A stretch of 64,000 bases of DNA, taken from the NCBI GenBank assembly GCA_003563855.1, contig PWTM01000309.1, positions 18,385 to 82,384 on the forward strand. Direction: 5' to 3'. Positions 33,333-58,975 of the stretch are shown here, piece by piece. Source of the stretch: PVC group bacterium. GTDB lineage: Bacteria > Verrucomicrobiota > Kiritimatiellia > PWTM01. Within the stretch, counting starts at the first letter, position 1. Each line of letters starts with the position of its first letter. The position numbers and the translations under genes are program-made. The notes under the pieces are model-generated. The model worked only from the letters and a program-made list of their open reading frames with translations. It did not search any database and was not told the DNA's origin.

Positions 33333-33359
33333 CCGCCGAATCTACCCGCCGGCGCCGGG

Positions 33360-38766: not shown

Positions 38767-38974
38767 GGTTACTCCATGGGGTGGGACAGAGGCGGGGGTC
38801 GAGTTCCAGGTCGTGCCAGACACTCTTCTACACTGGAATGCACTCGCACTGCCGCCCGTTGAGACTCTTTCCGCCGTACATGAGAAGGACAAATTAGCAC
38901 GATACGATGCCGACTGCACATTCGCCGATTGCGGATTTGTTTCTTGTACTATCCCGACACGGGGGAGAGAGGCG

Positions 38975-39165
38975 AGGAGCCAGGAGCGAGGAGCGGAGGG
39001 TGGCTTGCCCGTCGTCCTCGTTCTCGTCCTCGTCCTCGAACTTCCCCTGGGCCTTCCCGGTCTACGAGTACGTTCGACGAGTAGGGTCGACGAGTGGGGA
39101 GGGGCCGCACCGGCGTCGGGAGTCCGGCGTCCGGCGTCCCCGGACGGCGCCCCGCGCACGTCGCG
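38975..39165. repeat. composite GC-rich intergenic repeat element, copy b (imperfect GAGGAG/GAGGAC hairpin, tcgacgagtagggtcgacg, G-run, CCGGCGTCGGGAGTCCGGCGTCCGGCGTCC)
   Basis: Sits in the divergent promoter region between the giant esterase gene and the XylR-like regulator. Direct reading. Confidence 0.75.
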
Positions 39166-39202
39166 TTCGCGTGTTCCCCGCGACTGTGCTATAAGTGCCG
39201 CC

Positions 39203-40486
39203 ATGACAGGCTCCGGACAGGCATCGCCGCGCCGGCGCCGGCCGGGAAAATCTGACTCGCCGGGGGCGCGGCACAAGACGCGGACGGTCGCGCTGCTGGG
39301 CGGCCCGCGCCCGGAAATCCTGGCCGAGACGCAGGCGCGCGGATGGCGGCTTCTGCACCTCCAGCATTCCAACTACGTGGTTCCCCCGGGCCTGGAGATC
39401 GATGGCGCGCTGCTGCTCGCGACGTACAATGACCCCCGCATTCGCAAGGCCCTGACGCGGGTGCGGGCCGCCGTTCGGCTGGGCTCGGCGCCCGCCCCGG
39501 AGGCCCGGCGGTTTCCCGCCGTTCTGCCCGACCAGGCGGCGGAAGGGCGACTGGCGGCCGGGCATTTCGCGGAACGCGGATTCCGTCAGGTCGGCTACGT
39601 CGGGAGCCGGCCGCTGCAGGAACTCCGGCCCCTTTTCGAGAGCTTCCGGGACCGGTCGGCGGAGTTGGGAATGGCGTGTCATCTCCTCGAGATCGACCGG
39701 GGCGCGCTCGCCCGGTCCCAGGATCCGCACATCATGACCAAGCAACGGGTGTTCACCGACTGGCTGCGCACCGTTCCCAAACCCGTCGGCATTCTCGCCC
39801 CCAACGATAGTCGCGCGGCCCGCTATGCCTTCTGGACCGCCGAAGCCGGCTTCAACGTGCCCCTGGAAGTGGCCATTCTCGGCCGGGGAAACCGGACCGA
39901 GATCTGCGAGAGCGTGACGCCGACCCTCTCCTCGATCGATCCCGACAAGGCGGGACGAGCTCGGGCGGCCTGTGACCTGCTCGCGCGGCTGATGGCCGGC
40001 GAACCGCCGCCCCGGAAACCGGTCATCGTTCCGCCCGCGGTCGTCGTGGAACGGGAGAGCACGCGCCTGCTCGTGACGGCCGACCCGCAGTTGGCGGCCG
40101 CCCTGCGCTACCTGCGGGAGCACCTGCGCGAAGAGCTTTCCGTGGACGGCGTGGCGCGGGAGGTCGGCGTCTCGCGGCGCAAGCTCGAGCGGGCCTTCCA
40201 GCAGCACCTGCACCGCGGCATCAACGACGAGTTGCGCCGCATCCGGCTGGAGGAGTTCTGCCGCCTGATGCTCACGACCGACCGCTCCATCGCCAGGCTC
40301 GCCCCCGAGGTGGGCTTCCACAACCTGGCCAACCTTTACCGGGCCTTCAAGGCCGCCTGCGGCATGACGCCGCGACAGTACCGAATGCGGAACGCTCCGA
40401 ATGCGGAACGCGGAATGCGGAATGCGGAACGGCGGGGGAGCGGAGAGCGGCGCGCGTCACGGAGAGGGAAGACTCGTCGGGCGTAG
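39203..40486 (+). CDS. XylR-type transcriptional regulator (periplasmic-binding-protein-like sugar-sensing domain + C-terminal AraC-family HTH)
   Basis: C-terminus ALRYLREHLREELSVDGVAREVGVSRRKLERAFQQ...FHNLANLYRAFKAACGMTPRQYR is an AraC HTH. N-terminus TVALLGGPRP...VGILAPNDSRAA is PBP1-like. Start ATG 39203; the 5' part of the 38579 ORF is antisense to the esterase gene. Confidence 0.75.
   Translation: MTGSGQASPRRRRPGKSDSPGARHKTRTVALLGGPRPEILAETQARGWRLLHLQHSNYVVPPGLEIDGALLLATYNDPRIRKALTRVRAAVRLGSAPAPEARRFPAVLPDQAAEGRLAAGHFAERGFRQVGYVGSRPLQELRPLFESFRDRSAELGMACHLLEIDRGALARSQDPHIMTKQRVFTDWLRTVPKPVGILAPNDSRAARYAFWTAEAGFNVPLEVAILGRGNRTEICESVTPTLSSIDPDKAGRARAACDLLARLMAGEPPPRKPVIVPPAVVVERESTRLLVTADPQLAAALRYLREHLREELSVDGVAREVGVSRRKLERAFQQHLHRGINDELRRIRLEEFCRLMLTTDRSIARLAPEVGFHNLANLYRAFKAACGMTPRQYRMRNAPNAERGMRNAERRGSGERRASRRGKTRRA
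40378..40432. repeat. short tandem repeat (cgaatgcggaacg units) at the 3' end of the regulator gene
   Basis: ccgaatgcggaacgctccgaatgcggaacgcggaatgcggaatgcggaacgg, encoding MRNAPNAERGMRNAERRGS. Confidence 0.7.
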
Positions 40487-40619: not shown

Positions 40620-40694
40620 TGGAGCGAGCGATGGGATTCGAACCCACGACATCTACCTTGGCAAGGTAGAGCTCTACCACTGAGCTACGCTCGC
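40620..40694 (-). tRNA. tRNA-Gly (anticodon GCC), CCA end encoded
   Basis: Reverse complement is GCGAGCGTAGCTCAGTGGTAGAGCTCTACCTTGCCAAGGTAGATGTCGTGGGTTCGAATCCCATCGCTCGCTCCA. Confidence 0.85.
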
Positions 40695-40786: not shown

Positions 40787-41746
40787 TTACCCGGCCAGTG
40801 TCGGGGCGGCCGGGCCGCCTTCGGCGGCTTCGCGCCAGACGTCGTGGAAGAGGAAGCACTGGTAAGGATAGTCGCGCGTGTAGGCCTCCATCATGCGCGC
40901 GAAGGCCCCGACCCAGGCCTGGCGTTGTGCGGCCCTGGGCCGGCCCGGCGCGTAGCGCGGATGCCAGACGCCAGCCACGGTCACAACGTAGCCCCTGACC
41001 GAACGCTTGGCCGAGGTGAGCGCCACCACCGGGCAGCCGGCGACGGCCGCGATGTGGAAGCCGCCGCAGGAGAGCCGCGCGGGCGCGCCGAGAAAGGGCA
41101 CGGTGACCGCGCTGAACCCGTAGCTGCGGTCGCCCATGACCGCGACCAGCCCCCCCTCCTGCAAGGCGCGCGCAATGGGTACCGCCCCGCCGAGGTGGCT
41201 CTCCGGCGAGATGATCCGCAGCCGCTCGGCGCCGTCCGAGAGCCGCAACGACTCGGCCACCGCCGGGTTGTCCTCGGGGCGCATCACGAGGTGCACCGTA
41301 CGGTCGAGCCGGTCGAGACAGGTCATCACCGCCTGCCAGTTGCCGAGGTGGGCGGTCAGGAGGACGATGCCGCGCCCCTCCGCCATCGCCGCGCGCAGCC
41401 GGTCCTCCCCTTCCAGCCGCAGGTCGTAGCGGACCGCGCCGCTCAGCAGGCCGTGCCGGTCGATCAGGCTGCGGCCCTGGCCCAGGAATAGCCGGTAGAT
41501 GTCGCGCACGCGCCGGAGCCGGCCGTGCGCGGGAAACCGTCGCCGCACGTAGGCGGACGCCGCGCGCACCGCCGCGCGGTCGAACAGCAGGTAATAGGCG
41601 CACACAGGCCGCAGCAGCCCGTAGGCGCCGCGCAGGCCGAAGAGCCGGAGGCTGGCGCGGAAGAACCAGAAGCCCAGGGCATTCCCGCGCCGGCGCGTCC
41701 GGATACGGCGTCCGGCGTCCACGCGGGGCGGTGCGGGTTCGGTCAT
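40787..41746 (-). CDS. lysophospholipid/lipid-A-type acyltransferase (LPLAT, HtrB/MsbB-like)
   Basis: Last 319 aa of the track ORF (MTEPAPPRV...IVLLTAHLGNWQ...PIARALQEGGLVAVMGDR...). ATG at 41746 confirmed in sequence. Confidence 0.75.
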   Translation of the reverse strand: MTEPAPPRVDAGRRIRTRRRGNALGFWFFRASLRLFGLRGAYGLLRPVCAYYLLFDRAAVRAASAYVRRRFPAHGRLRRVRDIYRLFLGQGRSLIDRHGLLSGAVRYDLRLEGEDRLRAAMAEGRGIVLLTAHLGNWQAVMTCLDRLDRTVHLVMRPEDNPAVAESLRLSDGAERLRIISPESHLGGAVPIARALQEGGLVAVMGDRSYGFSAVTVPFLGAPARLSCGGFHIAAVAGCPVVALTSAKRSVRGYVVTVAGVWHPRYAPGRPRAAQRQAWVGAFARMMEAYTRDYPYQCFLFHDVWREAAEGGPAAPTLAG

Positions 41747-41751
41747 CCGTC

Positions 41752-42618
41752 TCACCGCCGCACCGGCACGCGGCGCTCCGAGGCGAAGAGGGTCCACGTG
41801 AGCACCGAGCCGATCGTCACGGAATTTTGCCGGCGGACAAGCGGGCTGTCGGCAAAGACGGCCCCGTCGATATTGTCCCAGCGCCCGTGGATGCCCCAGG
41901 AGAGACGCGGCCCGAGCGTGCGCTCGGCGTAGCCCATCGCCGAGAACCCGGCGTAGCCGGAGCCCGCGCGGTAGGGCGGCCGGTCCGGACGTGCCGCCTC
42001 GCCGGGCACGTCGTAGAGCAGGCCCGCGACGCCGCGATCGATCCATTCGACGCCGGCGCTCGCGCTGAAGCGCCACTCCGGCGCCCGGTCCGGCCGGACC
42101 TCCTGCAGCACGACCCACGCCGACACGCGATACCCCTCGTGGCGCAGGCTAAGCTCGCGGTGATCCGCGGAGAACACCGCGCGGGCGGTCAACCACAGGT
42201 AGGGCGAGAGCGGTGGCCGCTCGGGCTCCGGGTAGAGATGGACCGCGGGCCCGACCTCGCCGATCGCGCGCAGCCGCGCCATGCCCTCGCGCGCCCGTGT
42301 CCGGCTCGTCGGCGGCGGGTGGCCGGAGAACGAAAGATCGGACTCGATCCAGGACCGCCGGACCCAGACGCTGCGCACGCCCTCGCGGTCCGCCTCGACC
42401 AGGCGGCCGCGCAGGATCAGGAACGGGATCGGGACCGCGTAGATCGAGTGCTCGTCGGAGCCGCGGTAATGGGGGATACGGGCGACGCCGATCCCCAGGT
42501 TGACCTCCCAGAGCGGCTCCGTCTCCATCGCCGCGCCGCCGGCGGCGCCGGCCACGGTCCCGCCCCCGGCCAGGAGCGCGGCCGCGAGGCCCGCGACGAG
42601 CGCGCGGCCCGCGCTCAC
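41752..42618 (-). CDS. MipA/OmpV-family outer-membrane protein
   Basis: METEPLWEVNLGIGVARIPHYRGSDEHSIYAVPIPFLILRG... is MipA-like and is preceded by a 30-aa Ala/Gly-rich signal peptide. Proposed GTG start at 42618 overlaps the upstream TGA (GTGA). Confidence 0.65.
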   Translation of the reverse strand: MSAGRALVAGLAAALLAGGGTVAGAAGGAAMETEPLWEVNLGIGVARIPHYRGSDEHSIYAVPIPFLILRGRLVEADREGVRSVWVRRSWIESDLSFSGHPPPTSRTRAREGMARLRAIGEVGPAVHLYPEPERPPLSPYLWLTARAVFSADHRELSLRHEGYRVSAWVVLQEVRPDRAPEWRFSASAGVEWIDRGVAGLLYDVPGEAARPDRPPYRAGSGYAGFSAMGYAERTLGPRLSWGIHGRWDNIDGAVFADSPLVRRQNSVTIGSVLTWTLFASERRVPVRR

Positions 42619-43811
42619 GTCGCCGCCTCCGCTCGGCGCGCAGCGCTGCCGCGGACCGCCAGCGCGATCCCGTACGTTGCCAGCCCGGCCACGATCCCGA
42701 GGACCGGCGCGGCCACGAGCGCGCCAAGGAACCACTCCCAGATCCGCTCGTGCAACTGGTGGACCAGGATCTCGACCGACAAAGTTCGAATCGGCTGGCC
42801 GTGCCGCATGACGTGCCCGATCTGGACGCAGAGCACGGGGACGATCGGCGGAGCACAGAGGTTCTGGATCGAGAGCGCCATCACGCGGTTGAGCCGGAGC
42901 CGCGTCGTCACGTAGAGGATCGTCACCGAGTGCAGCCCGATCAGGGGCAGCGTAGCCAGGAATACGCCGACACCACCCGCCACGCCGAGCCCGGCGGGGG
43001 TCGCGTGCTCCCGCAGGAGGCTGCCGAAAAAGCGAAGCGGATGGCGCAGCAGCCGCACCCCCGGCTCGGGCGGGCTCGGCGCCAGCCGGCGCATGGGCCA
43101 GGGGACCAGCCGGCGCCCGACCAGCCGCGCATGCATCGCGGTCAGGCGCAGGTTGTCGCGCCACGGCCGGAAGTGCGAGACGCGCCGCCCCGGCGGCGCG
43201 TAGGTGACGCCGACATCGACCGACCGGATCGCGAGGCCGGCCCAGGCCGCGCGGGCCAGCACCTCGGCCTCGAAGTCGAAATGCCGGCCGCGCAGCTTCA
43301 GCTCCGAGACCAGGGCGACCGGGTACGCCCGGAACCCGCTCTGCGAGTCCCGGACCGGCAGGCCGGTCTCCATCCGGACCCAGGTGTCGGAGAACCGCAT
43401 GCCGAACCGGCTCGACCGCGGCACGTTCGGCCCGCGCATGTTGCGCGCCCCGATGACGATCGCCTCCGGGTCCTCCTCGAGCGCGGCGAGCAGCTTCGGG
43501 ATCTCCGCCGGGTCGTGCTGCCCGTCGGCATCGAGCGTCACCATGAACGCCCCGCCGCGCTCGCGCACCCAGGCCAGGGCGGTGCGCAGCGCGCAGCCCT
43601 TCCCGCGGTTGCGCGGGTGGCGCACGACCGCGATGTCCGTGTCCGCCAGCAGCGCGGCCACGTCCACATCGGTGCTCCCGTCGTCCACCACCAGCACGCG
43701 CGGAAGCACGGCCCGGCAGCCCTTCGCGACGGCCGCGACCGTGGTCCCGTTGTTGTAGACGGGCACGGCGCACCAGGCGCGCTCGCGGACCGGACGCCCG
43801 TCAGCCGCCAT
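42615..43811 (-). CDS. family-2 glycosyltransferase fused to a DUF2062-like C-terminal membrane domain
   Basis: CAVPVYNNGTTVAAVAKGCRAVLPRVLVVDDGSTD...VTLDADGQHDP is a GT2 (DXD) signature. The C-terminal half is hydrophobic. Confidence 0.8.
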   Translation of the reverse strand: MAADGRPVRERAWCAVPVYNNGTTVAAVAKGCRAVLPRVLVVDDGSTDVDVAALLADTDIAVVRHPRNRGKGCALRTALAWVRERGGAFMVTLDADGQHDPAEIPKLLAALEEDPEAIVIGARNMRGPNVPRSSRFGMRFSDTWVRMETGLPVRDSQSGFRAYPVALVSELKLRGRHFDFEAEVLARAAWAGLAIRSVDVGVTYAPPGRRVSHFRPWRDNLRLTAMHARLVGRRLVPWPMRRLAPSPPEPGVRLLRHPLRFFGSLLREHATPAGLGVAGGVGVFLATLPLIGLHSVTILYVTTRLRLNRVMALSIQNLCAPPIVPVLCVQIGHVMRHGQPIRTLSVEILVHQLHERIWEWFLGALVAAPVLGIVAGLATYGIALAVRGSAARRAEAAT

Positions 43812-45165
43812 CGCGCCCCCTCCGCGCCGGCCGGGGCTTGAGCAGCAGGTCCGTCAGCGAACCCGTGAACCCGAGCCGCAGCAGCGCGTGCAGTTGCGCG
43901 TCCAGCGCGTCGGGCGGGAAGACGATGTGGCGGTGGCCCGCGAACGCCTCGGTCAGCGTCGCCTCGAGCCAGGCACGATCCACCTTCGGCGACAGGTAGT
44001 AGACCGGTTCGAGCAGGTCCTGCCCCTCCCGGACCAGGCCTTCGCGCAGGGCGCGCCGCGCCAGCCCGGTGTCGGGCAGGATGCGCACGCCCATGAAGAC
44101 GAAGATCGCCGTGCGGTCGAGCGCCTGGAGATTCGCGATCCCCTCGCGCACCGTCTCCGGCGTCTCGCCGGGGCAGCCGAACATGAAGTAGTGGGCCGTG
44201 CTCACGCCGCCCTCGAGAAACAGGGCGTTGCACCGCCGCACGTCGGCGAAGGTGAAGTCCTTCCCGATCCCCCGCAGCGTCGCGTCGCTCGGCGCGTCCG
44301 AGCCGATCTCGGCCGCCTTGAGCCCGGTCGCCTGCATCTCCGCGACCGTCGCGGCGTCCAGCTCGTCCGAGGGTTTGAAGAACGCCGTCCACGGCACGGT
44401 CAGGCCGCGTCGCCGAAGTTCGGCCACGACCGCGCGGTACTGGCCCGTCTCGTCGTTGAAAACCGAATCGGTAAAGAAGACGTAGCGCGCGCCAAGCTTG
44501 ACGAGCCGTTCGACGTCGTCCACCACCGCCGCCGGATCCCGCGCGCGAACGGCGCGGCCTTCCAGCACGGGGTACGTGCAGTAGGCACAGGCGTGCGCGC
44601 ACCCGCGCTTGGTCTGCACCGGCGCGACGTTCCCCTGCGCGAAGTAGAAGGCGAGCAGGTCTTCGTCGTAGTCCGGCGCACCGATGCCCGCGCCTTCCAG
44701 GTCACCGGGCGCCGCAAGAATGCGCTCGGCCGGGTAGCGCCCGGCCTCGGCCTCGCGGACGAAATCGGCGAACGCCCGCTCCCCCTCGCCGACGATCCCG
44801 TAGTCCGCCCCGACCGCGCGCAGAACGGGACCGGGCATGACGGAGAAGCCGGACCCGCCGAGCACGATCCGGGCCGGCGTCTCCTCACGGATCGCCCGGA
44901 CCATGTCGGCGACCACCGCGATGTAGCGCTGCTCGTGCAGCAGGTTCACGTTGTCCACGTTGCGGATCGAGACGCCGATCAGCGCCGGCCGCCGGCGGCG
45001 CACCTCGGCCCGCAAGGCCTCGAACGACTGGCCGCTGCGCAGGAAGTCGAAGAGCGCGACCTCGTGCCCCTCGCGCCGCAGTGCGGCCGCGACCATGCTC
45101 GCCCCGAGCGGGTAGACGCAGTAGGGCGTGCTGGCGACGTTGGCCGAGATCAGCAGGACTCTCAC
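43801..45165 (-). CDS. class-B (B12-binding domain) radical SAM enzyme, copy 1
   Basis: VRVLLISANVASTPYCVYPLGASMVAAALRREGHEVALFD is a B12-binding Rossmann region. KRGCAHACAYCTYP is a CxxxCxxC rSAM triad. GTG start at 45165 with a GGAGGG RBS overlaps the upstream TGA. Confidence 0.8.
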   Translation of the reverse strand: MRVLLISANVASTPYCVYPLGASMVAAALRREGHEVALFDFLRSGQSFEALRAEVRRRRPALIGVSIRNVDNVNLLHEQRYIAVVADMVRAIREETPARIVLGGSGFSVMPGPVLRAVGADYGIVGEGERAFADFVREAEAGRYPAERILAAPGDLEGAGIGAPDYDEDLLAFYFAQGNVAPVQTKRGCAHACAYCTYPVLEGRAVRARDPAAVVDDVERLVKLGARYVFFTDSVFNDETGQYRAVVAELRRRGLTVPWTAFFKPSDELDAATVAEMQATGLKAAEIGSDAPSDATLRGIGKDFTFADVRRCNALFLEGGVSTAHYFMFGCPGETPETVREGIANLQALDRTAIFVFMGVRILPDTGLARRALREGLVREGQDLLEPVYYLSPKVDRAWLEATLTEAFAGHRHIVFPPDALDAQLHALLRLGFTGSLTDLLLKPRPARRGRDGG

Positions 45166-46430
45166 GGGCCGCCCTCCACCGCCCGGCCCGCCCACGCCCG
45201 ACGCGGCCTGCGGGCCGGGCGGTAGGTGCCGTCGGCGACTTCCTTGCCGATGACCTTCATGAAAAGGCGCCCCATCTTCACTTCCTTCGTCAGGTCGCGG
45301 TAGAAGGCGCTCCAGGCGTACTCGTACATCTCCTGGAGCTTTTCGGGGCTCATCTGCGCGGGCTGGAAGACCACCGTGTCGCCCGTGTACTCGATCCAGC
45401 GGTTGTGCAGGATGCGGCCCTGCGCCTCGAGCTGCGCGCGGATCGGCGTGTGCGGGAACGGCGTGAGCACCGTGAACTCCGCGAGGTCGAGCTCGATCTC
45501 GAGGAGGAAGTCCACGAGCCGCCGGATGCCGTCCTCGTCGTGGTCGTCGGTGCCGAGAATGATCGTGCCCTCCACGCCGATCCCGTGGTCCTTGAGGCGG
45601 CGGATGCGGCGGCGGATGTAATCGGACGTGTCGACGATCGCCTGGTAGACATACCAGCAGCCGGCCTTCGCCGCGAGGTCGAGGATTTCGTCGTCGTCCT
45701 TGATCGGGTGCGAGACCCACTTCTTCTTCAGCGGCGCCAGCGCACGGAACAGGTCCTTCTCCCAGGCGTCGTCCTGGGCCAGCGAGTTGTCGACGAAGAA
45801 GAGTCGGTTGTTGTCGATGCCCGCCACTTCCTCGACCACCCGGTCAATCGGCCGCGGGCGGAATCGGCGCCCGCCGAGAAACGGCGTGCAGCAGGGGAAG
45901 CAGTTGAACCGGCAGCCGCGCGAGGCGTGCACGAGGTCCACCATCTGCAGCCCACGGAAGGCGTACCGGTCGCGCTCCAGGATGCCCCGGCGCGCGGTCC
46001 CGATGAGGGCCGCGTCGGGGAAGTCGGTCAGGTAGTCGTAGCGCGGCCGCAGCCGGCCGGCGCGGAAGTCCTCGAGCACGCCCTCGAACCGGCCTTCCGC
46101 CTCGCCCAGGAAGACGGCGTCGGCATGGCGCGCGGCCTCGTCGGCATGGAGCATCGTGCCGATACCGCCGAGGATCACAGGCACGCCGCGCGCGCGGTAG
46201 CCGTCGGCGATCTCGAAGGCCCGCGGCATCTGGCAGGTAAGCATGACGGAGAGCGCGACCAGGTCGGGCGTGTCCTCGAGGTCGAGCGGCTGCACGTTCT
46301 CGTCGCAGAACGTCAGCCCGACGCCGTCCGGCACCGTCGCCGCGAAACAGACGGGGCCGTGCGGCGGAAGGTGAAACTCCGGCTGGTTCTTGAGCTTCGG
46401 CCAACGGGGATAGACCAGCTTCAGGTGCAT
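45162..46430 (-). CDS. class-B (B12-binding domain) radical SAM enzyme, copy 2
   Basis: MHLKLVYPRWPKL...DLVALSVMLTCQ is a B12-binding region. ASRGCRFNCFPCCTPF is a CxxxCxxC triad. ATG 46430 with an AGGAGG RBS. Confidence 0.8.
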   Translation of the reverse strand: MHLKLVYPRWPKLKNQPEFHLPPHGPVCFAATVPDGVGLTFCDENVQPLDLEDTPDLVALSVMLTCQMPRAFEIADGYRARGVPVILGGIGTMLHADEAARHADAVFLGEAEGRFEGVLEDFRAGRLRPRYDYLTDFPDAALIGTARRGILERDRYAFRGLQMVDLVHASRGCRFNCFPCCTPFLGGRRFRPRPIDRVVEEVAGIDNNRLFFVDNSLAQDDAWEKDLFRALAPLKKKWVSHPIKDDDEILDLAAKAGCWYVYQAIVDTSDYIRRRIRRLKDHGIGVEGTIILGTDDHDEDGIRRLVDFLLEIELDLAEFTVLTPFPHTPIRAQLEAQGRILHNRWIEYTGDTVVFQPAQMSPEKLQEMYEYAWSAFYRDLTKEVKMGRLFMKVIGKEVADGTYRPARRPRRAWAGRAVEGGP

Positions 46431-47122
46431 GCGGCCCCTCCTTCCGGTGCGGCGCGGCCGAGCGCGCGGGCGGCGGCCCGCGGCGCGCGGCTTCGACCGA
46501 TCCGTTTGATCGCCGTCTCGAGCGGCCAGCCGTCCGAACCCGCGCCCGGCCCGACCAGGAACGCGAGCGCGCCGCGCGCGTCGAAATCCACGGCGAGCAG
46601 CGCCTCGGCCGCGTCGCAGGCGATCAGTTCTCCCGCCATCCGCAGCAGTTCGGCCGGCCGCGGCGCCGGGAGCCCGGCGAAGAGCAGCGGACCGCGCAGC
46701 CCGCAGTGGATCGAAGCTTCGGCCAGCGGGCTGCTCGGAAGCGTATAGACGAAAAGGTTGCCCCGCGCCAGCGTGCGGCCGGCCGCGACGTAGTCCTCGA
46801 AGTAGGCGCGGTTCGCCCGCAGGCTGCCGTCCGGGCCGGTTCCGAGCAGCCCGATGCCAAGGGTCCCGCCTTCGGCGTAGTCGAACCCCGCATCGCGCAG
46901 CGCCAGGGCGCAGGCCGCGCAGACGCGGCGCGCGTCCCCGTCCATCCGGCCGTAGTTGCGGACCGGGTAGGCGAACGGCCCGCCGTGCGCCCGGGTGGCG
47001 CCGGCTCCCTCGCCCGCCGCGGGCGGCGGCGACGCGCGCAGACCCCGGCGCGCGCCCCCTGCGCGCGCCGGCTCGACCCAGCCGGCGCCCCGCACCACGA
47101 GCTGGCATCCGGCCCCGCTCAT
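46421..47122 (-). CDS. beta-ketoacyl-synthase-like N-terminal-domain protein lacking the active-site Cys (chain-length-factor-like partner)
   Basis: NLFVYTLPSSPLAEASIHCGLRGPLLFAGL aligns to the FabF region just upstream of the catalytic Cys, but the Cys is absent. ATGA overlap with the KS stop. Confidence 0.55.
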   Translation of the reverse strand: MSGAGCQLVVRGAGWVEPARAGGARRGLRASPPPAAGEGAGATRAHGGPFAYPVRNYGRMDGDARRVCAACALALRDAGFDYAEGGTLGIGLLGTGPDGSLRANRAYFEDYVAAGRTLARGNLFVYTLPSSPLAEASIHCGLRGPLLFAGLPAPRPAELLRMAGELIACDAAEALLAVDFDARGALAFLVGPGAGSDGWPLETAIKRIGRSRAPRAAARALGRAAPEGGAACT

Positions 47123-48237
47123 GGCCCGAGCACCAGCGCGGCGTTCACGCCGCCGAATCCCGAGTTCGTGGACAGCGCCAGCCGACCGGGCGGGAGCGGC
47201 ACGGGCTCCGGCGCAACCCAGCCCGCCGCCTCGGGCGCCGCGGTCCGCAGCCCGGCCGTAGCCGGCGCGACACCCGCCTTCATCGCGGTCAGCGCCACCG
47301 CCGCCTCAACCAGGCCGGCCGCCCCCATCGTGTGGCCGATCGCGCCCTTGACCGAGTAGACGGGCGCGGGGCGCGCGAAGACCCGGCCGAAGGCGCGCAT
47401 CTCCATGGCATCGTTGTACGGCGTGCCCGTCCCGTGCGCGCAGATCGAGCCGACCGCCTCCGGCCCCGCCGACGCCCGGCGCAGCGCCGCCTCGATCGCG
47501 CACGCCAGTCCGTCGCCGTCGCGCGACGGACCGGTCATGTGGTTGGCATCCGACGCAAGGCCCCACCCCGCCACCGTGCCGAGACGCGGGCGGCCCTCGC
47601 GTGCCGCCCGGTCCTCGCGCAGGAGGACCGCGACACCGGCCGCCTCCCCGACCGTGAGCCCGCGCCGGTCCCGGTCAAACGGTCGCGCGCCGTCCGGATC
47701 CAGCGCCATCAGGGCGGAGAACCCGGCGTGGACGAACTCGGTCACCGCGTCGCAGGCCACGACCACGACGGCCTCGCGCCGGCCGGTCTCGATCAGGCCC
47801 GCGCCCAGCGCGAGCGCGGTCGACGAGGAGGCGCAGGCAGCCGAGACGAGCCGCCCGGCGCGCACGCCGCAGAGCCGCTTCACCCGGGCCAGCAGCCGGT
47901 CCGGCCGGCTCGCCTCCGGGTCGCCTTGCCCGAGCAGCACGTGCCGTTCGAGCCGGTCGACCTCGCCCGCCGTCGTCGCCAGCAGCAGGAGCGCATCGGC
48001 CGGGATCGCCGGGCGCAGCCGCGCCAGGAGCGGACGCAGGAGCTGCATCGCCAGCGAATCGCGCGCGCGCGGGTTCAGCCCGGCCGCCGTCGCCGCCAGC
48101 CGCGAGGCGAGGTGGCCGGCCGGGAAGCGGGTCAGCTCGGAAAAAGCCCGCCGCCCGTCCCGGATGGCGGGCCAGGCTTCCGCGAGGCCCGCACCGCAGG
48201 CGGTCGCAGCGTCGAAGGCAACGACGACCGCCTTCAT
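47119..48237 (-). CDS. beta-ketoacyl-ACP synthase (FabF/FabB-like, full catalytic triad)
   Basis: MKAVVVAFDAATACGAG..., SAACASS (Cys), CAHGTGTPYND (His), VKGAIGHTMGAAG (His). Start ATG 48237. Confidence 0.8.
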   Translation of the reverse strand: MKAVVVAFDAATACGAGLAEAWPAIRDGRRAFSELTRFPAGHLASRLAATAAGLNPRARDSLAMQLLRPLLARLRPAIPADALLLLATTAGEVDRLERHVLLGQGDPEASRPDRLLARVKRLCGVRAGRLVSAACASSSTALALGAGLIETGRREAVVVVACDAVTEFVHAGFSALMALDPDGARPFDRDRRGLTVGEAAGVAVLLREDRAAREGRPRLGTVAGWGLASDANHMTGPSRDGDGLACAIEAALRRASAGPEAVGSICAHGTGTPYNDAMEMRAFGRVFARPAPVYSVKGAIGHTMGAAGLVEAAVALTAMKAGVAPATAGLRTAAPEAAGWVAPEPVPLPPGRLALSTNSGFGGVNAALVLGP

Positions 48238-48722
48238 GCCTGGAGCGCCGCGAATTCGCCGGCCCGCCAGCGTTTCCGGCACCGGGCCAGCAGCGGGGGC
48301 GGCGTGAGGCAGACCTCGCCGCTGGCGGCCGAGACCAGCAGTTGCACGGTCTGCCCGGCGGCCGTGGGCACGCCGTCCGCCGCGGTCAACGTGTATTCGA
48401 AATTGAGCCGCGCGCCCTCGCACCAGATCAGCGCGCAGCGAATCGTGAACGCCTCGTCGAGCCGAAGCGGCCGGAAATACTCGACGTGGTAGCGCACGAC
48501 CGGCGCCCGCAGTCCGGCCTCGTAGTAGTCCGCGTAGGACAGCCCGCAGCGGCGACCGAGCTCCGCCGCGCCTTCCTCGAAAAACACCGCGTAGCGCCCG
48601 AACCAGGCGATCCCCATCGGGTCCGCCTCGCCGAACCCGACGCGGCGCGGGAGTTCCACCGCCAGCGGGGCCGGGGCGCCCGGCTCGCGCGGGAAACGTG
48701 CGGAGCGCGCGCGCGGGCTCAC
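48234..48722 (-). CDS. 4HBT/YbgC-type hotdog acyl-(ACP/CoA) thioesterase
   Basis: LAVELPRRVGFGEADPMGIAWFGRYAVFFEEGAAELGRRCG...YHVEYFRPLRLDE. Proposed GTG start at 48722 overlaps the upstream TGA. Confidence 0.65.
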   Translation of the reverse strand: MSPRARSARFPREPGAPAPLAVELPRRVGFGEADPMGIAWFGRYAVFFEEGAAELGRRCGLSYADYYEAGLRAPVVRYHVEYFRPLRLDEAFTIRCALIWCEGARLNFEYTLTAADGVPTAAGQTVQLLVSAASGEVCLTPPPLLARCRKRWRAGEFAALQA

Positions 48723-49108
48723 GGAGCGGCGTCTCCGGCGGACGCGGACACCGCCAGGCGCAGGTCCGCCACGCGCTCCCCGGCGAGCGTCACGCGCACA
48801 CGAAGCGGGGTCGGCCCGGCGCCGTTCGGACCGGGCTCGACGGAGAAATCGAGGACCTCCCCGGCCGACACCGGCCGGTACCACTTCGCCGAGGCGATCT
48901 CCGAGAGTTCACCGGTCCCGCACCCGGCGGCTTCGGCGAGGATCAGCGCCGCACGGATCATGCAGACCCCGGGCAGCACGGGTTGCCCGTCGAAGTGGCC
49001 GCGGAACCCGACGAACCCGGACGGGAAGATGAACCGTCCGCGCACCGCGCCCCCTTCCCGCGCCGTTTCGCGCAGGCACGCCCTGATCTCGCCGTCGAGT
49101 CCGCTCAT
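48719..49108 (-). CDS. 3-hydroxyacyl-ACP dehydratase (FabZ/FabA-like hotdog)
   Basis: MSGLDGEIRACLRETAREGGAVRGRFIFPSGFVGFRGHFDGQPVLPGV... Only the last 129 codons of the 575-aa track ORF are real; the rest is antisense to creD. Confidence 0.7.
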   Translation of the reverse strand: MSGLDGEIRACLRETAREGGAVRGRFIFPSGFVGFRGHFDGQPVLPGVCMIRAALILAEAAGCGTGELSEIASAKWYRPVSAGEVLDFSVEPGPNGAGPTPLRVRVTLAGERVADLRLAVSASAGDAAP

Positions 49109-49330
49109 CGAATGCTGCCCCGCGTCCAGCGACCCTCGCCCTGCGCCGCGCGGGCAGCCACGGCGCCGGCCGGGACTCCCCGAGGCAAGTCGCCGGCGCA
49201 GGTAGGAACGCCGATTCAACATCGCAGAACGGCCCCGCGCTGTCAAACAGCGGCCATCGGGCCCCGATCGCGCGCGGGCTTGCGCGGCGGACGGCGGGCC
49301 TTGTAGTCTCGCGGGCGGAGGTACTTGCCG

Positions 49331-50788
49331 ATGAATGAGACCCCTGCCCAGCCGCCACCGGCCCAGCCGCCACCTGCCCAGCCGCCACCGGTTCCCCCCG
49401 TCAGCTCGGAAGCACGCGCGGCCGCCCGCTGGATTTCCGGCCGGCCGCGCCCGGTGCTGAAGCTCCTCACCATCGGCGGCCTCATCCTGGTCCTGCTGAT
49501 CCCCCTGCAGATGATCCGCGGAGTGCTGACCGAGCGACTCGTCCGCCGGAACGAGGCGGTCGCCGAAATCACGGGAACCTGGGGCGGCGACCAGACGGTG
49601 ATCGGGCCGGTGCTGATGGTGCCGTACCGGTACCCGGTCAAGACGGTGCGCGACCAGACCGTGGACGGGCGCGTCCAGCGGGTCGAGGTCGAGGAAATGG
49701 GCCTGGCGCAGGCCTTCTTCCTTCCGGACCGCGTCGAGATCGCCGGCGATCTCGACCCGCGCGTATTGCACCGCGGCATCTACCGGGCGGTCGTCTACCG
49801 CGGCCGGCTGACGATCGAAGGCGCCTTTGCACGGCCCTCGTTCGAGGACTGGCGGGTTCCGCCCGAGAACGTGCTCTGGGAGGACGCCGCCGTCGGGTTC
49901 GCGATCACGGACCTGCGCGGGGTCGAGGACGCGCTTCAGCTCGACTGGAACGGCCGCGCGGTGCCGCTCGAGCCCGGCAGCCTGGTCCCGGGCTTCAACG
50001 TCGGCGTGACGGCCCGGCTGCGCGAAACGGAGGCGCTGGAGGCCGACGATCTCCCGTTCGCGCTGACCCTGGCGCTCAACGGCAGCAACGGCATCCGGTT
50101 CGCGCCGGTCGGCGCGCGGAATACCGCGCGGTTGACCTCGTCCTGGCCGGACCCGAGCTTCCAGGGCCAGTTCCTGCCCGCCGACCGGACGGTTGGCCCG
50201 GAGGGCTTCGAGGCGCAGTGGGCGCTCTCCTATTACGGGCGCGCCTACCCGCAGCAGTGGACGGTGACGCCGGGCGCCGGCGCGCGCCCGCCGGCGCTGG
50301 GCTCGGCGCTCTTCGGCGTCGACCTCCGGATGCTGGTGGACCAGTACCGGAACGTCGAACGCGCGATCAAGTACGGGATTCTCTTCCTCGTGCTCGTCTT
50401 CACGGGGTTCTTCCTTTTCGAGACCCTCGGCGTGGCACGCGTCCACCCGTTCCAGTATGCGCTGGTGGGGGCGGCGTTGTGCCTCTTCTACCTCGCGTTG
50501 CTGTCCCTCTCGGAGTTCATCCGCTTCGGCGCCGCATACCTGGTCGGCGCCGCGGCGGCCACCGCGATGATCTCGCTCTATTGTGCGAGCGTCCTGCGCG
50601 GGGGCCGGCGCGCGGCGATCGTGGCGGTGGAACTGGCGGCGATTTACGGCTTCCTGTTCGTGCTCCTGCAGCTCCAGGACTACGCGCTGCTGATCGGGAC
50701 CGCGGGCCTCTTCGCCGCGCTCGGCGCCGTCATGTACCTGACGCGCAACGTGAACTGGTACGAGCAGCGGCCCGCGTCCGGCGGGTAG
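49331..50788 (+). CDS. creD: cell-envelope integrity inner-membrane protein CreD
   Basis: MNETPAQPPPAQ...TGTWGGDQTVIGPVLMVPYRY... plus multiple C-terminal TM segments. ATG 49331 with a GGAGGT RBS. Confidence 0.75.
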   Translation: MNETPAQPPPAQPPPAQPPPVPPVSSEARAAARWISGRPRPVLKLLTIGGLILVLLIPLQMIRGVLTERLVRRNEAVAEITGTWGGDQTVIGPVLMVPYRYPVKTVRDQTVDGRVQRVEVEEMGLAQAFFLPDRVEIAGDLDPRVLHRGIYRAVVYRGRLTIEGAFARPSFEDWRVPPENVLWEDAAVGFAITDLRGVEDALQLDWNGRAVPLEPGSLVPGFNVGVTARLRETEALEADDLPFALTLALNGSNGIRFAPVGARNTARLTSSWPDPSFQGQFLPADRTVGPEGFEAQWALSYYGRAYPQQWTVTPGAGARPPALGSALFGVDLRMLVDQYRNVERAIKYGILFLVLVFTGFFLFETLGVARVHPFQYALVGAALCLFYLALLSLSEFIRFGAAYLVGAAAATAMISLYCASVLRGGRRAAIVAVELAAIYGFLFVLLQLQDYALLIGTAGLFAALGAVMYLTRNVNWYEQRPASGG

Positions 50789-50822
50789 CGTCGGCCGTGG
50801 CGGCGCCGGTTGCGCGGCCGGG

Positions 50823-51728
50823 CTAGAGGTGTGTCATGAAGCTGACGCCGGCATCGACGACATAGACGCGGTGCCGTCCGCCGGGCCCGCCGTCCGGATC
50901 CGACGTGACCACGTAGCCCTCGCGCCGCAGCGTCTCCACCCAGGTTTCAATCAGGCGCCGCCGCCGCGGTTCGTCTTCGATCGCCTCGAGCTGCGCGCGC
51001 AGCTCCCGCGCCTGCGACATCAGCTCCCCGCGCCGCGCGTTCGCCTGGCTGCGCTCCTCCCGAATCCGGGCGCGCTCGGCCGCGATCTCCTCGCCCGTCA
51101 TCTCCCGTTGCGCGGTCCCGACGACCGCCGTCGTGGAGAACGCGTCCCCCCGCAGGACCAGGCGCCAGGTTCCATCCGGCCGCTCCGTCGCTTCGGCGAA
51201 GTGCCCCTCCCCGCGGAGCTCCTGCACGAACTGGTCGACGAGCGACGCCGCGCGCGCCCGGTTCGACCCCACGGCGTCGACGCGTTCGCGCAGCTCGGCG
51301 ACCCGCCGGCGGATCTCCGCGAACTGTGCCCGGCGCGCCCGCATGCGCTCCGCAAACGCGGCGCGTGGCGAAGGCGGCTCCTCCGCCGGAGGCGCGACCC
51401 CGCGCTCCGGCATGCCGTGCAGCGGAAGCACCGCCACCTCCCCGGCGTGGCGCAGGGTGGCCCGTTCCCGCTCGAAGTCGGCCCCCACCAGCTCGATGCC
51501 CCGAAGGGTCTCGCCGGAACGCAGAAAGAAGGCCTGGCCGGATTCCACGTCGAACAGGCCCACGCGCGACTCGAGGCCCACGGCGACGATCGAGGTCAGG
51601 CGCAGGTTCCGGGCAAACGCCGGCGGCTCGTCGTTCGCCGCAACGGTTGCAGCAGCGATCAGGAACCCGGCCGCCGCCGAGAACCGTCCCACGCGCCCTC
51701 TCCCCATCCGTACCCACGCAGTCCTCAT
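50823..51728 (-). CDS. hypothetical secreted coiled-coil protein
   Basis: MRTAWVRMGRGRVGRFSAAAGFLIAAATVAAN is signal-like; the central region is Arg/Glu-rich coiled coil. No family recognised. Confidence 0.4.
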   Translation of the reverse strand: MRTAWVRMGRGRVGRFSAAAGFLIAAATVAANDEPPAFARNLRLTSIVAVGLESRVGLFDVESGQAFFLRSGETLRGIELVGADFERERATLRHAGEVAVLPLHGMPERGVAPPAEEPPSPRAAFAERMRARRAQFAEIRRRVAELRERVDAVGSNRARAASLVDQFVQELRGEGHFAEATERPDGTWRLVLRGDAFSTTAVVGTAQREMTGEEIAAERARIREERSQANARRGELMSQARELRAQLEAIEDEPRRRRLIETWVETLRREGYVVTSDPDGGPGGRHRVYVVDAGVSFMTHL

Positions 51729-51864
51729 ACCCCACGTATCCCACGCCATCGAAGCCCCTGTCAAGCCGACAAGCCGACGCCTTGACGGCGGGCGGCGGGC
51801 AGGGCGAGACTCGGGCATCGCGGCCGATGCACGGGTACCGGCCGCCCAACCGGAGGGATGAACC

Positions 51865-52560
51865 GTGGCGCCCGACTTCACCCTGGCTGAGATCGCCGGC
51901 ATGATCGATCACTCGATGCTCGCGCCGACGATGACGATGGACGTTCTGGAGAAGGGCTGCGCGCTGGCCGCACGCGCGCAGGTGGCGAGCGTCTGCCTCA
52001 TGCCCTACTACCTGCGACGCTGCGCGGAACAGCTCAAGGGCACCCCGGTGCGCCCCACCACCACCATCGGGTTTCCCCACGGCGGGCAGGCGTCGGCGAC
52101 AAAGGCGGCCGAGACCCGCCAGGCGATCGACGACGGGGCGGCGGAGGTCGACATGGTGATCAACATCAGCCGCGCGTTGAGCGGCGACTGGGACGGCGTC
52201 CGGGAAGACATCGCCGCCGTGATCGAACCCGCGCACACCGCCGGCGTGAAGGTGAAGGTCATCTTCGAGACCTGCTACCTCGACCGCGCGCAGAAGATCC
52301 GGCTCTGCGAAATCTGCGGCGAGCTCGGCGCCGACTGGGTCAAGACCTCGACCGGGTTCGGCACGGGCGGCGCGACGCTGGAGGACCTCGAGCTGATGCG
52401 CGCACACGCCCCGCCGGCCGTCCAGGTCAAGGCCTCCGGCGGCATCCGCGACCTCGACACGATCCTGGCCATGCGCGCCCTCGGTGTCACCCGCGTCGGC
52501 TGCTCGCGCACGGCCGAGGTCCTCGACGAGTGCCGCCGCCGGCTTTCGCAGAAGACCTGA
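51865..52560 (+). CDS. deoC: deoxyribose-phosphate aldolase
   Basis: LAEIAGMIDHSMLAPTMTMDVLEKGCALAARAQVASVCLMPYY...VKTSTGF... GTG start with a GGAGGG RBS. Confidence 0.8.
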   Translation: MAPDFTLAEIAGMIDHSMLAPTMTMDVLEKGCALAARAQVASVCLMPYYLRRCAEQLKGTPVRPTTTIGFPHGGQASATKAAETRQAIDDGAAEVDMVINISRALSGDWDGVREDIAAVIEPAHTAGVKVKVIFETCYLDRAQKIRLCEICGELGADWVKTSTGFGTGGATLEDLELMRAHAPPAVQVKASGGIRDLDTILAMRALGVTRVGCSRTAEVLDECRRRLSQKT

Positions 52561-52584
52561 GCGGCGACGCGTCTCCGCTCTGCC

Positions 52585-52655
52585 CCGCCGCGTCGCGACA
52601 CGGCGGAAAGCGAAAGCGGCCTCGCGAGGCCGCACTCCAAAGGCGCGCGCGGCGC
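52585..52655. repeat. ~65-bp palindrome-containing repeat (core GCGGCCTCGCGAGGCCGC), copy 1
   Basis: ccgccgcgtcgcgacacggcggaaagcgaaagcggcctcgcgaggccgcactccaaaggcgcgc. Near-identical copy at 59904-59975. Confidence 0.8.
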
Positions 52656-52785
52656 GCGCCCGCCGATCTCGCGCCGCGCCGGCGCCTTGCCGCGCCTTGA
52701 AACGCGCGGGGCGCTCGCGTAGGGTGCGGAGGTCGCCGCGCCCGGGTTCGGGCCGGCGCGGCCCTGGTCGGGGCGGGAGGTCCGG

Positions 52786-55464: not shown

Positions 55465-55527
55465 ACGCCGCGTTCCGGCTGGCAAGGGGGGCGGGGAGGC
55501 GGTAAGGTACGGCACACGCGAGCGGGG

Positions 55528-57920: not shown

Positions 57921-57935
57921 ACCGCGGCTGCAGGT

Positions 57936-58236: not shown

Positions 58237-58369
58237 GCGCCGCTCCGCGGCGCGCAGCAACCCGGCGCGCGCCGGGCGTGCCCAGGGTGCACCAAGGCCG
58301 GCGTGCAAGACGCCGCCGGCTGTGGTATAGGGGCGGCGGGCGGTGTGGCTGCCCTGCAGGGAGAGTGAC

Positions 58370-58879: not shown

Positions 58880-58892
58880 TGACCAGGCCATC

Positions 58893-58975
58893 AGCGTCGT
58901 CCTCGTGCTCGTCCTCGTCCTCGTTCTTCGACATCCGAGAACGAGAACGAGAACGAGGACGAGGACGATCGGAAA
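58893..58975. terminator. long imperfect GAGGAC/GAGAAC hairpin just downstream of the flavodoxin gene (terminator-like; member of the GC-rich repeat family)
   Basis: tcgtcctcgtgctcgtcctcgtcctcgttcttcgacatccgagaacgagaacgagaacgaggacgaggacga. Confidence 0.5.

Follow-up and report, generated by a model that had tools for sequence, protein, structure and literature searches.

Among described pathways, those closest to the locus considered here make aryl polyenes (APE) and flexirubins. The aryl polyene lipid (APEL) consists of N-acetylgalactosamine (GalNAc)-phosphate-glycerol with a polyene acyl chain on the glycerol and an aryl polyene on the sugar; its pathway includes the acyltransferase ApeD and the glycosyl/acyltransferase ApeJ, and the product is exported to the outer membrane (10.1101/2020.12.19.423268; PMC8253772). 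A second system of relevance is the anammox-specific cluster amxACP-amxFabZ-FabF2-FabFmut-PDH-B12 rSAM (PMC10139942), in which rSAM denotes a radical S-adenosylmethionine (radical-SAM) enzyme; according to the cited literature, the anammox candidate clusters are still unproven and heterologous expression of their radical-SAM proteins failed. Thousands of non-anammox clusters have been labelled 'ladderane' by genome-mining tools, and their products are not known (PMC9902471; PMC11968836). Ladderane-annotated clusters are expressed by non-anammox phyla in anoxic water (PMC9902471), and the 'ladderane' gene cluster calls in Desulfobacterota, Omnitrophota, Verrucomicrobiota and others are reported to be expressed and unexplained (PMC9902471, PMC11968836). 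Here we describe a nine-gene operon found in a 64,000-nucleotide stretch of a Planctomycetes-Verrucomicrobia-Chlamydiae (PVC) group bacterium (contig PWTM01000309.1), the whole of which is referred to as the window, and compare it with these systems.

With a probability of roughly 0.6, we regard the operon as the compact PVC-lineage version of a widely distributed gene cluster that comes from the APE/flexirubin 'type II polyketide synthase-like' lipid pathway and makes a radical-tailored, envelope-anchored product. Clusters of this kind were already flagged by the antiSMASH class 'ladderane' and by the family TIGR04072, and are biochemically uncharacterised; what is new here is the compact variant that bears MipA and has no acyl carrier protein (ACP). 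From the first gene to the last, the operon comprises:

48719-49108, minus strand: g9, ApeI-like hotdog protein of 129 aa, the first gene of the operon (Pfam, PDB matches, motif)
48234-48722, minus strand: g8, 4HBT/YbgC-type acyl thioesterase of 162 aa (Pfam, NCBIfam, motif)
47119-48237, minus strand: g7, short beta-ketoacyl synthase (KS) of 372 aa with a Cys-His-His triad (Pfam, NCBIfam, PDB)
46421-47122, minus strand: g6, truncated Cys-less KS-fold partner of 233 aa, an ApeC-like short chain length factor (CLF) or 'factor' (fold)
45162-46430, minus strand: g5 (rSAM2), radical-SAM enzyme of 422 aa with an N-terminal Rossmann domain, in no curated family
43801-45165, minus strand: g4 (rSAM1), TIGR04072 'lipid biosynthesis B12-binding/radical SAM protein' of 454 aa (NCBIfam)
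42615-43811, minus strand: g3, family 2 glycosyltransferase (GT2) of lipid-phosphate type fused to a DUF2062 membrane domain, 398 aa (Pfam, NCBIfam)
41752-42618, minus strand: g2, MipA/OmpV-family outer-membrane protein of 288 aa (Pfam)
40787-41746, minus strand: g1, LpxL/PatA-family (PF03279) membrane acyltransferase of 319 aa, the last gene of the operon (Pfam)

Raw lists of open reading frames were uninformative because the window has about 70% G+C. Analysis of the G+C content at third codon positions (GC3) gave exactly nine consecutive minus-strand genes between 40787 and 49108, and public gene calls (contig PWZY01000156.1, GCA_003567235.1) match all nine, in agreement with the coordinates and the list of back-to-back genes in an earlier note on this DNA. 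Two starts lie upstream of the minimal reading, those of g8 (48234-48722, 162 aa) and g2 (41752-42618, 288 aa); the GTG start of g8 at 48722 was set by the public call and by a conserved N-terminal extension. Seven of the junctions overlap by 4 to 11 nt and one is a 5-nt gap, and a scan for terminator-like sites within the operon found none above shuffled expectation. The nine genes are thus predicted to form a translationally coupled operon. The domains named in the earlier note, i.e., 4HBT, KS, B12-binding with Radical_SAM in two proteins, GT2-DUF2062, MipA and a lysophospholipid acyltransferase-like (LPLAT) domain, were all recovered with Pfam and NCBIfam, the hotdog match being weak.

Scanning species-representative genomes with rSAM1 yielded 37 related loci, which come from metagenome-assembled genomes (MAGs) of Verrucomicrobiota/Kiritimatiellia/PVC, Omnitrophota, Planctomycetales, Lentisphaerae/Victivallales, Hydrogenedentota, Pseudomonadota and Thermodesulfobacteriota. 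The gene-neighbourhood comparison that the earlier note had suggested showed that the order hotdog-thioesterase-KS-partner-rSAM2-rSAM1-GT2-(MipA)-LPLAT is kept in about 30 loci of at least six phyla. Fifteen of these loci, which belong to MAGs of PVC, Omnitrophota, Hydrogenedentota, Planctomycetales, Pseudomonadota and Thermodesulfovibrionia, keep all eight non-MipA genes in a colinear arrangement. Because the order repeats in about 30 loci of several phyla, the arrangement is not due to chance. Eleven related loci encode MipA; every one is of the Verrucomicrobiota/Kiritimatiellia/Victivallales type, and the Omnitrophota-type clusters have no MipA gene. In the closest long relative (L046, a PVC MAG), genes for ACP, KS and KS/CLF come directly after the LPLAT gene that ends the nine-gene unit. 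Two other loci (L006 and L009) carry the nine genes only, between unrelated neighbours, and the nine-gene unit is therefore an independent module that recurs with unrelated flanks in at least three genomes. The window holds this compact, PVC-type form, in which MipA is present and ACP, reductase, ligase and exporter are missing; the carrier protein and the reductase must be supplied in trans.

The core is part of a cluster of about 22 genes in Omnitrophota, Hydrogenedentota, Thermodesulfovibrionia and other groups. Upstream of the core are genes for an ACP, a PlsC-type acyltransferase, an AMP ligase, LolA, MMPL, a 221-aa protein and a radical-SAM/SPASM protein fused to an ApeP-like dehydratase domain; the downstream part encodes an ACP, a KS, a KS/CLF, another ACP, a 448-aa protein, an FAD oxidoreductase and a third, BchE/HpnJ-like radical-SAM enzyme. 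The ligase of these extended clusters scores 447.7 bits on the flexirubin model FlxY (cutoff 520) and the LolA protein 120.7 on LolA2_flexi (cutoff 125), and a FlxY-like ligase and/or an aromatic lyase is found in the relatives L040, L042, L016, L022, L035 and L033. Furthermore, plasmid pPP6 of the cultured bacterium Persicobacter psychrovividus carries a flexirubin/APE-type cluster with homologues of g8 (31% identity), g7 (32% over the full length), g3 (a DUF2062 protein with 31% identity over 83% of the length) and g1 (25%), next to genes for a tyrosine/aromatic lyase, FabG, KS/CLF, ACPs, LolA, a polysaccharide deacetylase and an AMP ligase. Given the FlxY-like, LolA2 and ApeP-like genes of the extended clusters, the Persicobacter homologues and the lyase of L033, the cluster family appears to be an offshoot of the APE/flexirubin pathways to which radical-SAM enzymes have been added. 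The aryl-polyene-type resemblance proposed in the earlier note is borne out by these Persicobacter homologues and by the FlxY-like, LolA2, MMPL, ApeP-like and ACP flanks in other phyla.

Several features of the related loci deserve mention in their own right. The fusion of a radical-SAM/SPASM protein to an ApeP-like domain, which is unusual, lies at 2133-3608 of L040, 754-2238 of L042 and 1141-2256 of L047; its best radical-SAM matches are of AhbD/NirJ type and far below cutoffs, and the precomputed Pfam annotation of the L047 copy shows SPASM and ApeP-like domains only. A polysaccharide deacetylase is fused to DUF2062 in L025 (1437-2717, minus strand), an aromatic amino-acid lyase gene lies directly downstream of the rSAM pair in L033 of Verrucomicrobia (3858-5420, plus strand), and L032 contains an alpha/beta-hydrolase-radical-SAM-SPASM fusion and a beta-lactamase-fold gene (350-1936 and 11301-12734). 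On pPP6 (L045, 8720-9304), the position of g6 after the g7-like KS is taken by a 194-aa hypothetical protein that shares an F-x-YTLP...GE block with the g6 family at a weak hhalign probability of 39%. This protein may be a very distant member of the g6 family in flexirubin clusters, which we offer as a lead and not as homology.

The chain-building genes resemble their APE counterparts to different degrees. For g9, the Pfam scores of 19.1 bits (FabA) and 16.8 bits (ApeI-like) are both below cutoff, and the public gene call has a precomputed ApeI-like match; the PDB matches are 3esi and ApeI (6qsr_A), and the motif GHF(P)xxPvLPGvC, including its His, is kept in 24 homologues. The thioesterase g8 matches 4HBT_2 (3.2e-13) and 4HBT (3.6e-10) of Pfam as well as the YbgC/FadM model TIGR00051 (1.5e-13), with a conserved motif E-x-D...W-G-Y that includes the catalytic Asp. 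Both the N- and C-terminal KS domains of Pfam are present in g7, which is shorter than FabF. Its top NCBIfam match, over the full length, is AmcF (194.4 bits, cutoff 325), followed by FabF (185 bits), and its PDB neighbours are 9s5h_B, FabF, ApeO (6qsp_A) and Iga11 (6kxd_A), so that among solved structures g7 is about equally near to FabF enzymes, the aryl-polyene KS ApeO and the ishigamide KS. The triad Cys135/His268/His302 is kept in 25 homologues; this triad and the two radical-SAM motifs CAHACAYC and CRFNCFPC, all pointed out in the earlier note, are present and conserved in the homologues. The adjacent g6 has a KS/thiolase fold and the size of ApeC but no nucleophile Cys, and it has no NCBIfam match at E<=0.01 even though an AmcG model exists. 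The two proteins, g7 and g6, may form a KS/CLF-type heterodimer. The 'CLF-like' partner of the earlier note is accordingly Cys-less and of KS fold, as claimed, but it is of the half-size ApeC kind and not a full-length CLF.

The remaining non-radical genes point to a sugar-bearing, acylated anchor. The g3 protein matches GT2 (3.8e-21) and DUF2062 (1.7e-10) of Pfam; its top NCBIfam match is the polyprenyl-phospho-GalNAc synthase PpgS (8.5e-27), with further matches to ArnC and dolichyl-P hexose transferase, its closest solved structures are ArnC and DPMS, and the motifs DAD and D-x-QSGFR-x-YP are conserved. A literature search for DUF2062 in such clusters gave no paper on the subject, apart from an unrelated one in which aryl polyene and DUF2062 are both mentioned. 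The outer-membrane protein g2 matches Pfam MipA at 1.4e-28. For g1, the Pfam family Lip_A_acyltrans is matched at 4.1e-13 (49.6 bits, cutoff 22.3), the top NCBIfam match is the phosphatidylinositol mannoside acyltransferase PatA (2.7e-12), followed by LpxL-type families, and the PDB neighbours are LpxM (5kn7) and PatA (5f2t). PatA acylates a sugar on a glycophospholipid.

The two radical-SAM enzymes can be told apart. In the profile searches advised by the earlier note, g4 exceeded the TIGR04072 cutoff and g5 exceeded no NCBIfam cutoff. rSAM1 is a full member of TIGR04072 (577.6 bits, cutoff 360; residues 2-442 on positions 1-442 of the 443-position model), which upholds the tie that the note had drawn to anammox ladderane candidates and scattered non-anammox bacteria. 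It scores 70.6 bits on B12-binding and 55.2 bits on Radical_SAM of Pfam, and the CxxxCxxC motif CAHACAYC is kept in 37 homologues. The next-best NCBIfam families are BzaD (182 bits) and the Trp 2-C-methyltransferase TsrM (142 bits); the closest solved structure is TsrM (6wte, 2.1e-38), and CysS, which acts on a carrier-linked substrate, matches too. rSAM1 is thus like TsrM, BzaD and CysS in domain architecture and sequence, but all its scores are below the cutoffs of those families. In the structure of TsrM, Arg69 reportedly lies beneath the corrin and Glu273 blocks the unique iron. The Arg69 motif is kept in rSAM1 as S-x-R-N-x-D, whereas Glu273 aligns to an invariant Val, so that the non-radical mechanism of TsrM is not implied. 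Since the Arg69 motif is retained and the Glu273 position is Val, rSAM1 looks like a cobalamin enzyme capable of ordinary radical chemistry. We found no characterised member of TIGR04072 in the literature and no paper on this family or its product name.

rSAM2 is the most conserved protein of the set, with a median identity of 71% (range 68-80%) across phyla, compared to 38-57% for the other genes. Its CxxxCxxC motif CRFNCFPC is invariant, and the mean column identity is 78% over 41 homologues. The Pfam B12-binding domain is matched only in part, at 33.8 bits (cutoff 32.1), and Radical_SAM at 25.2 bits, under the cutoff of 29.5; no NCBIfam cutoff is reached. In the AlphaFold2 model (pLDDT 88.9), the Rossmann domain is present, and the fold matches solved structures of radical-SAM enzymes, the best being the 1,2-diol dehydratase AprD4 (6fd2, TM-scores 0.76/0.71), then MgmA, TsrM, MiaB and CysS. 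A Rossmann-like N-terminal domain and a radical-SAM barrel are common to rSAM2, AprD4, HpnJ and BchE, and rSAM2 has weak sequence matches to all three, but the identity is 18-19% and the scores are 30-48 bits against cutoffs of 480-578. The contexts differ as well, since rSAM2 is encoded among genes for lipid synthesis and AprD4 and BchE among those for aminoglycoside and tetrapyrrole synthesis, respectively. We consider rSAM2 the best candidate for new chemistry.

An exhaustive HMMER search showed that the orthologues of rSAM2 fall in only two full-length clusters at 50% identity; separated from them by a gap are the members of a large paralogous family, which share 33-42% identity and number 775 representatives at E<=1e-30. 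Ten of these paralogues were examined, and all score under the curated family cutoffs. One relative, P0372 (1210 aa), is an MMPL/HAE3 (HpnN-like) lipid transporter of the resistance-nodulation-division type with a C-terminal rSAM2-like domain (39% identity), and this fusion hints that the rSAM2-like family acts on membrane lipids at the point of export. In a plasmid collection, relatives of rSAM2 are only distant (about 32% identity) and stand in other contexts. One such locus (L048), on a plasmid of Citrobacter portucalensis (NZ_CP134684.1, 51417-63512), has five rSAM2-like radical-SAM genes, the matched one being 32% identical, as well as genes for a GH3-family adenylating enzyme, an N-acetyltransferase, a PAP2 phosphatase and a fatty acid desaturase. 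This locus looks like a so far uncharacterised cluster for lipid modification in a cultured enterobacterium. The transporter fusion and the plasmid with its desaturase and PAP2 genes are circumstantial support for lipid substrates.

Taken together, the best reading of the product, by analogy with the APE systems, is a radical-tailored envelope lipid resembling a glycophospholipid. As ApeO does with ApeC, the Cys-His-His KS g7 would pair with the half-size, Cys-less g6, and the pair would add malonyl units to an acyl chain borne by a carrier protein whose gene lies elsewhere. Housekeeping type II fatty acid synthesis would supply reduction and g9 would help in dehydration; the outcome would be a specialised acyl chain that is unsaturated or reduced in part. 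rSAM1 would most likely C-methylate the chain or its head group, which we propose because all its characterised relatives are C-methyltransferases. rSAM2, being similar to AprD4, HpnJ and BchE, may carry out a second, non-methylating radical step on the lipid, such as dehydration, desaturation or C-C bond formation. The thioesterase g8 would free or proofread the chain, g3 would place a hexosamine-type sugar on a lipid phosphate, and g1 would esterify the special chain to this sugar lipid, as in APEL. The product would then reach the outer membrane, with MipA (g2) in place of the LolA/MMPL export module of other phyla.

Several observations weigh against this scheme. Neither the operon nor the rest of the 64-kb window contains an ACP, a ketoreductase, an ApeP-type dehydratase, a ligase or an exporter, and several steps are therefore assumed to be supplied from elsewhere. 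The earlier note had remarked that ACP, ketoreductase, enoyl reductase and adenylating enzyme were missing from the operon, and the same holds for the whole window; ACP, LolA, MMPL, ligase and a second KS pair were not found elsewhere in the 64 kb even at E<=10. At the position of the catalytic Glu of E. coli FabZ, aligned by eye, the homologues of g9 have Gln and the window protein has Arg. The scores of g9 on the FabZ models of NCBIfam, 26 and 23.8 bits, are also far below the cutoffs of 113 and 155, so that g9 was rejected as a true FabZ and the 'FabZ-like dehydratase' of the earlier note is better described as ApeI-like; g9 may need a partner subunit or may be no dehydratase. In g1, the acidic residue of the HX4(D/E) motif is missing: the sequence is HxGNWQ, which aligns to HFGTWE of LpxM, and the Gln is invariant in 26 homologues (L006-L036). 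Because of these two replacements, the activities of g9 and g1 may differ from those of the models used. The label ApeI-like for g9 and the label ApeC-like for g6 rest on weak sequence scores or the fold only, and no NCBIfam flexirubin model is among the matches listed for the nine window proteins. Of the two B12-binding enzymes claimed in the earlier note, rSAM1 is secure by family membership and rSAM2 is only a possible B12 enzyme, because its nearest structure is AprD4 and its Pfam B12-binding score is barely over the threshold; AprD4 is not known to use cobalamin. The gene order does not reveal the target of the radical-SAM enzymes, be it the acyl chain, the sugar or the finished lipid. 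We know of no role of MipA in lipid transport, and no member of the cluster family with a known product was found in the literature. With the three corrections made above to g9, g6 and rSAM2, the earlier interpretation as a whole is supported.

A wider proposal, possible but in our view doubtful, is that the core makes a novel class of envelope lipids in many phyla that are uncultivated and for the most part anaerobic (Omnitrophota, Kiritimatiellia/Verrucomicrobiota, Lentisphaerota, Nitrospirota, Desulfobacterota and Hydrogenedentota). Radical-SAM enzymes would introduce methyl branches into a polyketide-like chain of these lipids and cyclise or desaturate it, without oxygen. If true, radical-SAM tailoring of a ketoacyl-derived (non-isoprenoid) membrane lipid would be proven here for the first time, the proposed cases of ladderanes and jawsamycin apart, and the cluster would be a likely evolutionary stock for the anammox ladderane machinery and a candidate source of orphan sedimentary lipid biomarkers.

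It is unlikely, within the same pathway frame, that both radical-SAM enzymes tailor the sugar head group instead of the acyl chain. rSAM2 would then deoxygenate or ring-contract a lipid-linked hexosamine, following the logic of AprD4 on paromamine and of HpnJ on hopanoid-glucosamine, and rSAM1 would C-methylate the sugar. AprD4, the best structural neighbour of rSAM2, and HpnJ, among its best NCBIfam matches (8.9e-13), both act on amino-sugar substrates, but the AprD4/HpnJ-type scores are far under the family cutoffs. The rSAM genes lie directly upstream of the GT2-DUF2062 gene with an 11-nt overlap, which would fit a sugar substrate, yet the rSAM pair occurs with a KS but no GT2 in L019 and with neither in L032 and L033. 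Polysaccharide deacetylases in the extended clusters, one of them fused to DUF2062, echo the set of HpnI (GT2), HpnK (deacetylase) and HpnJ; nevertheless, flexirubin-type clusters without radical-SAM genes likewise contain polysaccharide deacetylase and GT2-DUF2062.

We consider it improbable that the operon provides lipid A with a special secondary acyl chain and a sugar modification, in the manner of the rhizobial AcpXL/FabZXL/FabF1,2XL/LpxXL system for very-long-chain fatty acids combined with an ArnC-type transferase. The membership of g1 in PF03279 with LpxL/LpxM matches, the ArnC-like g3, the dedicated KS and hotdog genes and the outer-membrane protein in the operon are consistent with such a role. 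On the other hand, the top match of g1 is PatA and not LpxL, there is no dedicated ACP, and the syntenic partners in other genomes are APE/flexirubin parts (FlxY-like ligase, LolA2, MMPL, ApeP-like domain and aromatic lyase), with no lipid A genes among them. To our knowledge, radical-SAM enzymes have no precedent in lipid A acylation.

It is very improbable that the window copy is a decaying, productless remnant that has lost the ACP-KS-CLF module kept by L046. At the place after the LPLAT gene where L046 has ACP, KS and KS/CLF, the window has a tRNA gene and a region of lower G+C, but decay is unlikely since all nine reading frames are intact, GC3 is high and every catalytic motif is present, and the nine-gene-only form of L006 and L009 points to a self-sufficient unit. 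Finally, the making of ladderane (concatenated cyclobutane) lipids, implied by the family name rSAM_ladder_B12 and the antiSMASH class and favoured by the TIGR04072 membership of rSAM1 and by the anammox candidate clusters, which also combine KS/CLF-like pairs, FabZ and B12 radical-SAM enzymes, is scarcely credible and was rejected, because the amxACP, amxFabZ and phytoene-desaturase-like enzyme of the anammox-specific cluster are all missing here and the TIGR04072-type family is spread across many non-anammox phyla, whereas ladderanes are known from anammox Planctomycetota only and were not found in Desulfotalea psychrophila despite a syntenic cluster (PMC2649909).

The surroundings of the operon are those of an ordinary chromosomal context and no island. 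Its upstream boundary is a divergent CreD gene that begins at 49307, and the only sizeable non-coding gap adjoining the operon lies between the two:

49109-49306: 198-bp intergenic region common to the operon and the divergent CreD gene, presumed by position alone to be the promoter region

A scan found no sigma-70 consensus site above shuffled expectation, and no cobalamin riboswitch or other RNA element precedes the operon; Rfam gives three tRNAs only in the window. Downstream are tRNA-Gly(GCC) (40620-40694, minus strand) and a convergent AraC/periplasmic-binding-type regulator on the plus strand, which ends at 40486. The region beyond the tRNA (33757-40486) contains a gene for a 1871-aa surface protein with TSP3, fn3, PKD, SASA and InlB-repeat domains, and its G+C is lower (0.62 vs 0.70-0.76). 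This stretch may be an insertion beside the tRNA, at the place where relatives such as L046 have ACP-KS-CLF. In the flanks (1-33000 and 49307-64000), a ribosomal-protein/rpoB-rpoC block is apparent by open reading frame size alone. Flank genes confirmed by Pfam are EF-Tu (29230-30531), type I phosphodiesterase (32025-33341), CreD (49307-50788), a DeoC-type aldolase, pyruvate dehydrogenase E1 and E2 (52723-56889), flavodoxin, the NiFe hydrogenase large subunit (61074-62555) and an Nqo3-like Fe-S subunit.

As a minimal, self-contained version found in at least three genomes, the nine-gene unit is tractable for heterologous expression. Descent from the APE/flexirubin pathways would allow concrete predictions of the anchor lipid, a sugar-phosphate-glycerolipid, and of what six of the nine genes do. 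The two radical enzymes can be kept apart as a TsrM/BzaD-like cobalamin protein of methylase type and an uncurated, highly conserved AprD4-like protein. The product, if found, would extend the lipid classes of poorly known anaerobic phyla and would inform the long-open ladderane problem.

Compared with the anammox clusters of Kuenenia (kuste3335-3352 and kuste3603-3608), the operon shares an adjacent radical-SAM pair, FabF-like KS proteins including one that is non-canonical, and a FabZ-like protein, and the extended clusters also share with kuste3335-3352 the ACPs, a phenylacetyl-CoA-type ligase, a glycosyltransferase and a polysaccharide-deacetylase-like protein. This likeness is one of gene content only. 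The host, however, is no anammox bacterium, and the window has no amxACP or other ACP, no amxFabZ, no FAD/phytoene-desaturase-like gene and no SAM methylase; its KS partner is half-size and not a full-length FabF. With the cispentacin proteins AmcF and AmcG, a KS and its 'cyclization factor', the operon has in common a short KS and a small partner without recognisable motifs, but it has no equivalents of AmcH, AmcB and AmcE, and membership was rejected on the curated cutoffs (g7 at 194.4 vs 325; no AmcG match for g6). The earlier note had named confident assignment to a characterised pathway as an outcome at odds with its interpretation; no such assignment was obtained, as the operon falls outside the curated AmcF/AmcG families and the anammox cluster and differs from APE clusters in several respects.

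The flexirubin clusters of Bacteroidota, such as that of pPP6, share homologues of g8, g7, g3 and g1 with the operon, along with a short protein in the position of g6, and the extended relatives nearly reach the FlxY and LolA2_flexi cutoffs. The flexirubin clusters differ in that they have no radical-SAM genes and contain a tyrosine ammonia-lyase, FabG, a SAM methyltransferase and ACPs, all missing from the window, with identities of the shared proteins of 25-32%. From the APE/APEL clusters of E. coli CFT073 and Xenorhabdus doucetiae (apeA-R), the operon differs by having two radical-SAM enzymes and MipA, which APE clusters do not have, and an acyltransferase of PF03279 (LpxL/PatA type). It also contains no ACP, ketoreductase (ApeQ/FabG), ApeP, ApeR, ligase or methyltransferase ApeB. 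The window has the ApeI-like hotdog protein only instead of an ApeI+ApeP pair, and no aryl starter supply (ammonia-lyase and/or ligase). The LolA/MMPL export module is missing from the window and its PVC-type relatives, where MipA is found, and is present in the Omnitrophota-type relatives. Sequence similarity to the Ape proteins is weak. Since ACP, ketoreductase, ApeP, ligase and exporter are missing, the operon is not filed as a member of the APE family. What it does share with APE/APEL is an ApeI-like hotdog protein, an ApeK-like 4HBT thioesterase, an ApeO-like KS with a half-size ApeC-like partner, an ApeJ-like glycosyltransferase, a lipid acyltransferase and a predicted outer-membrane destination, and the lipid attachment genes g3, g1 and g8 all have homologues in the Persicobacter cluster. 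The extended relatives add an ApeH-like ligase, an ApeL-like LolA, an ApeM-like MMPL protein, an ApeP-like domain and tandem ACPs. By analogy, the operon in the window would therefore be expected to work like an APE-type lipid pathway.

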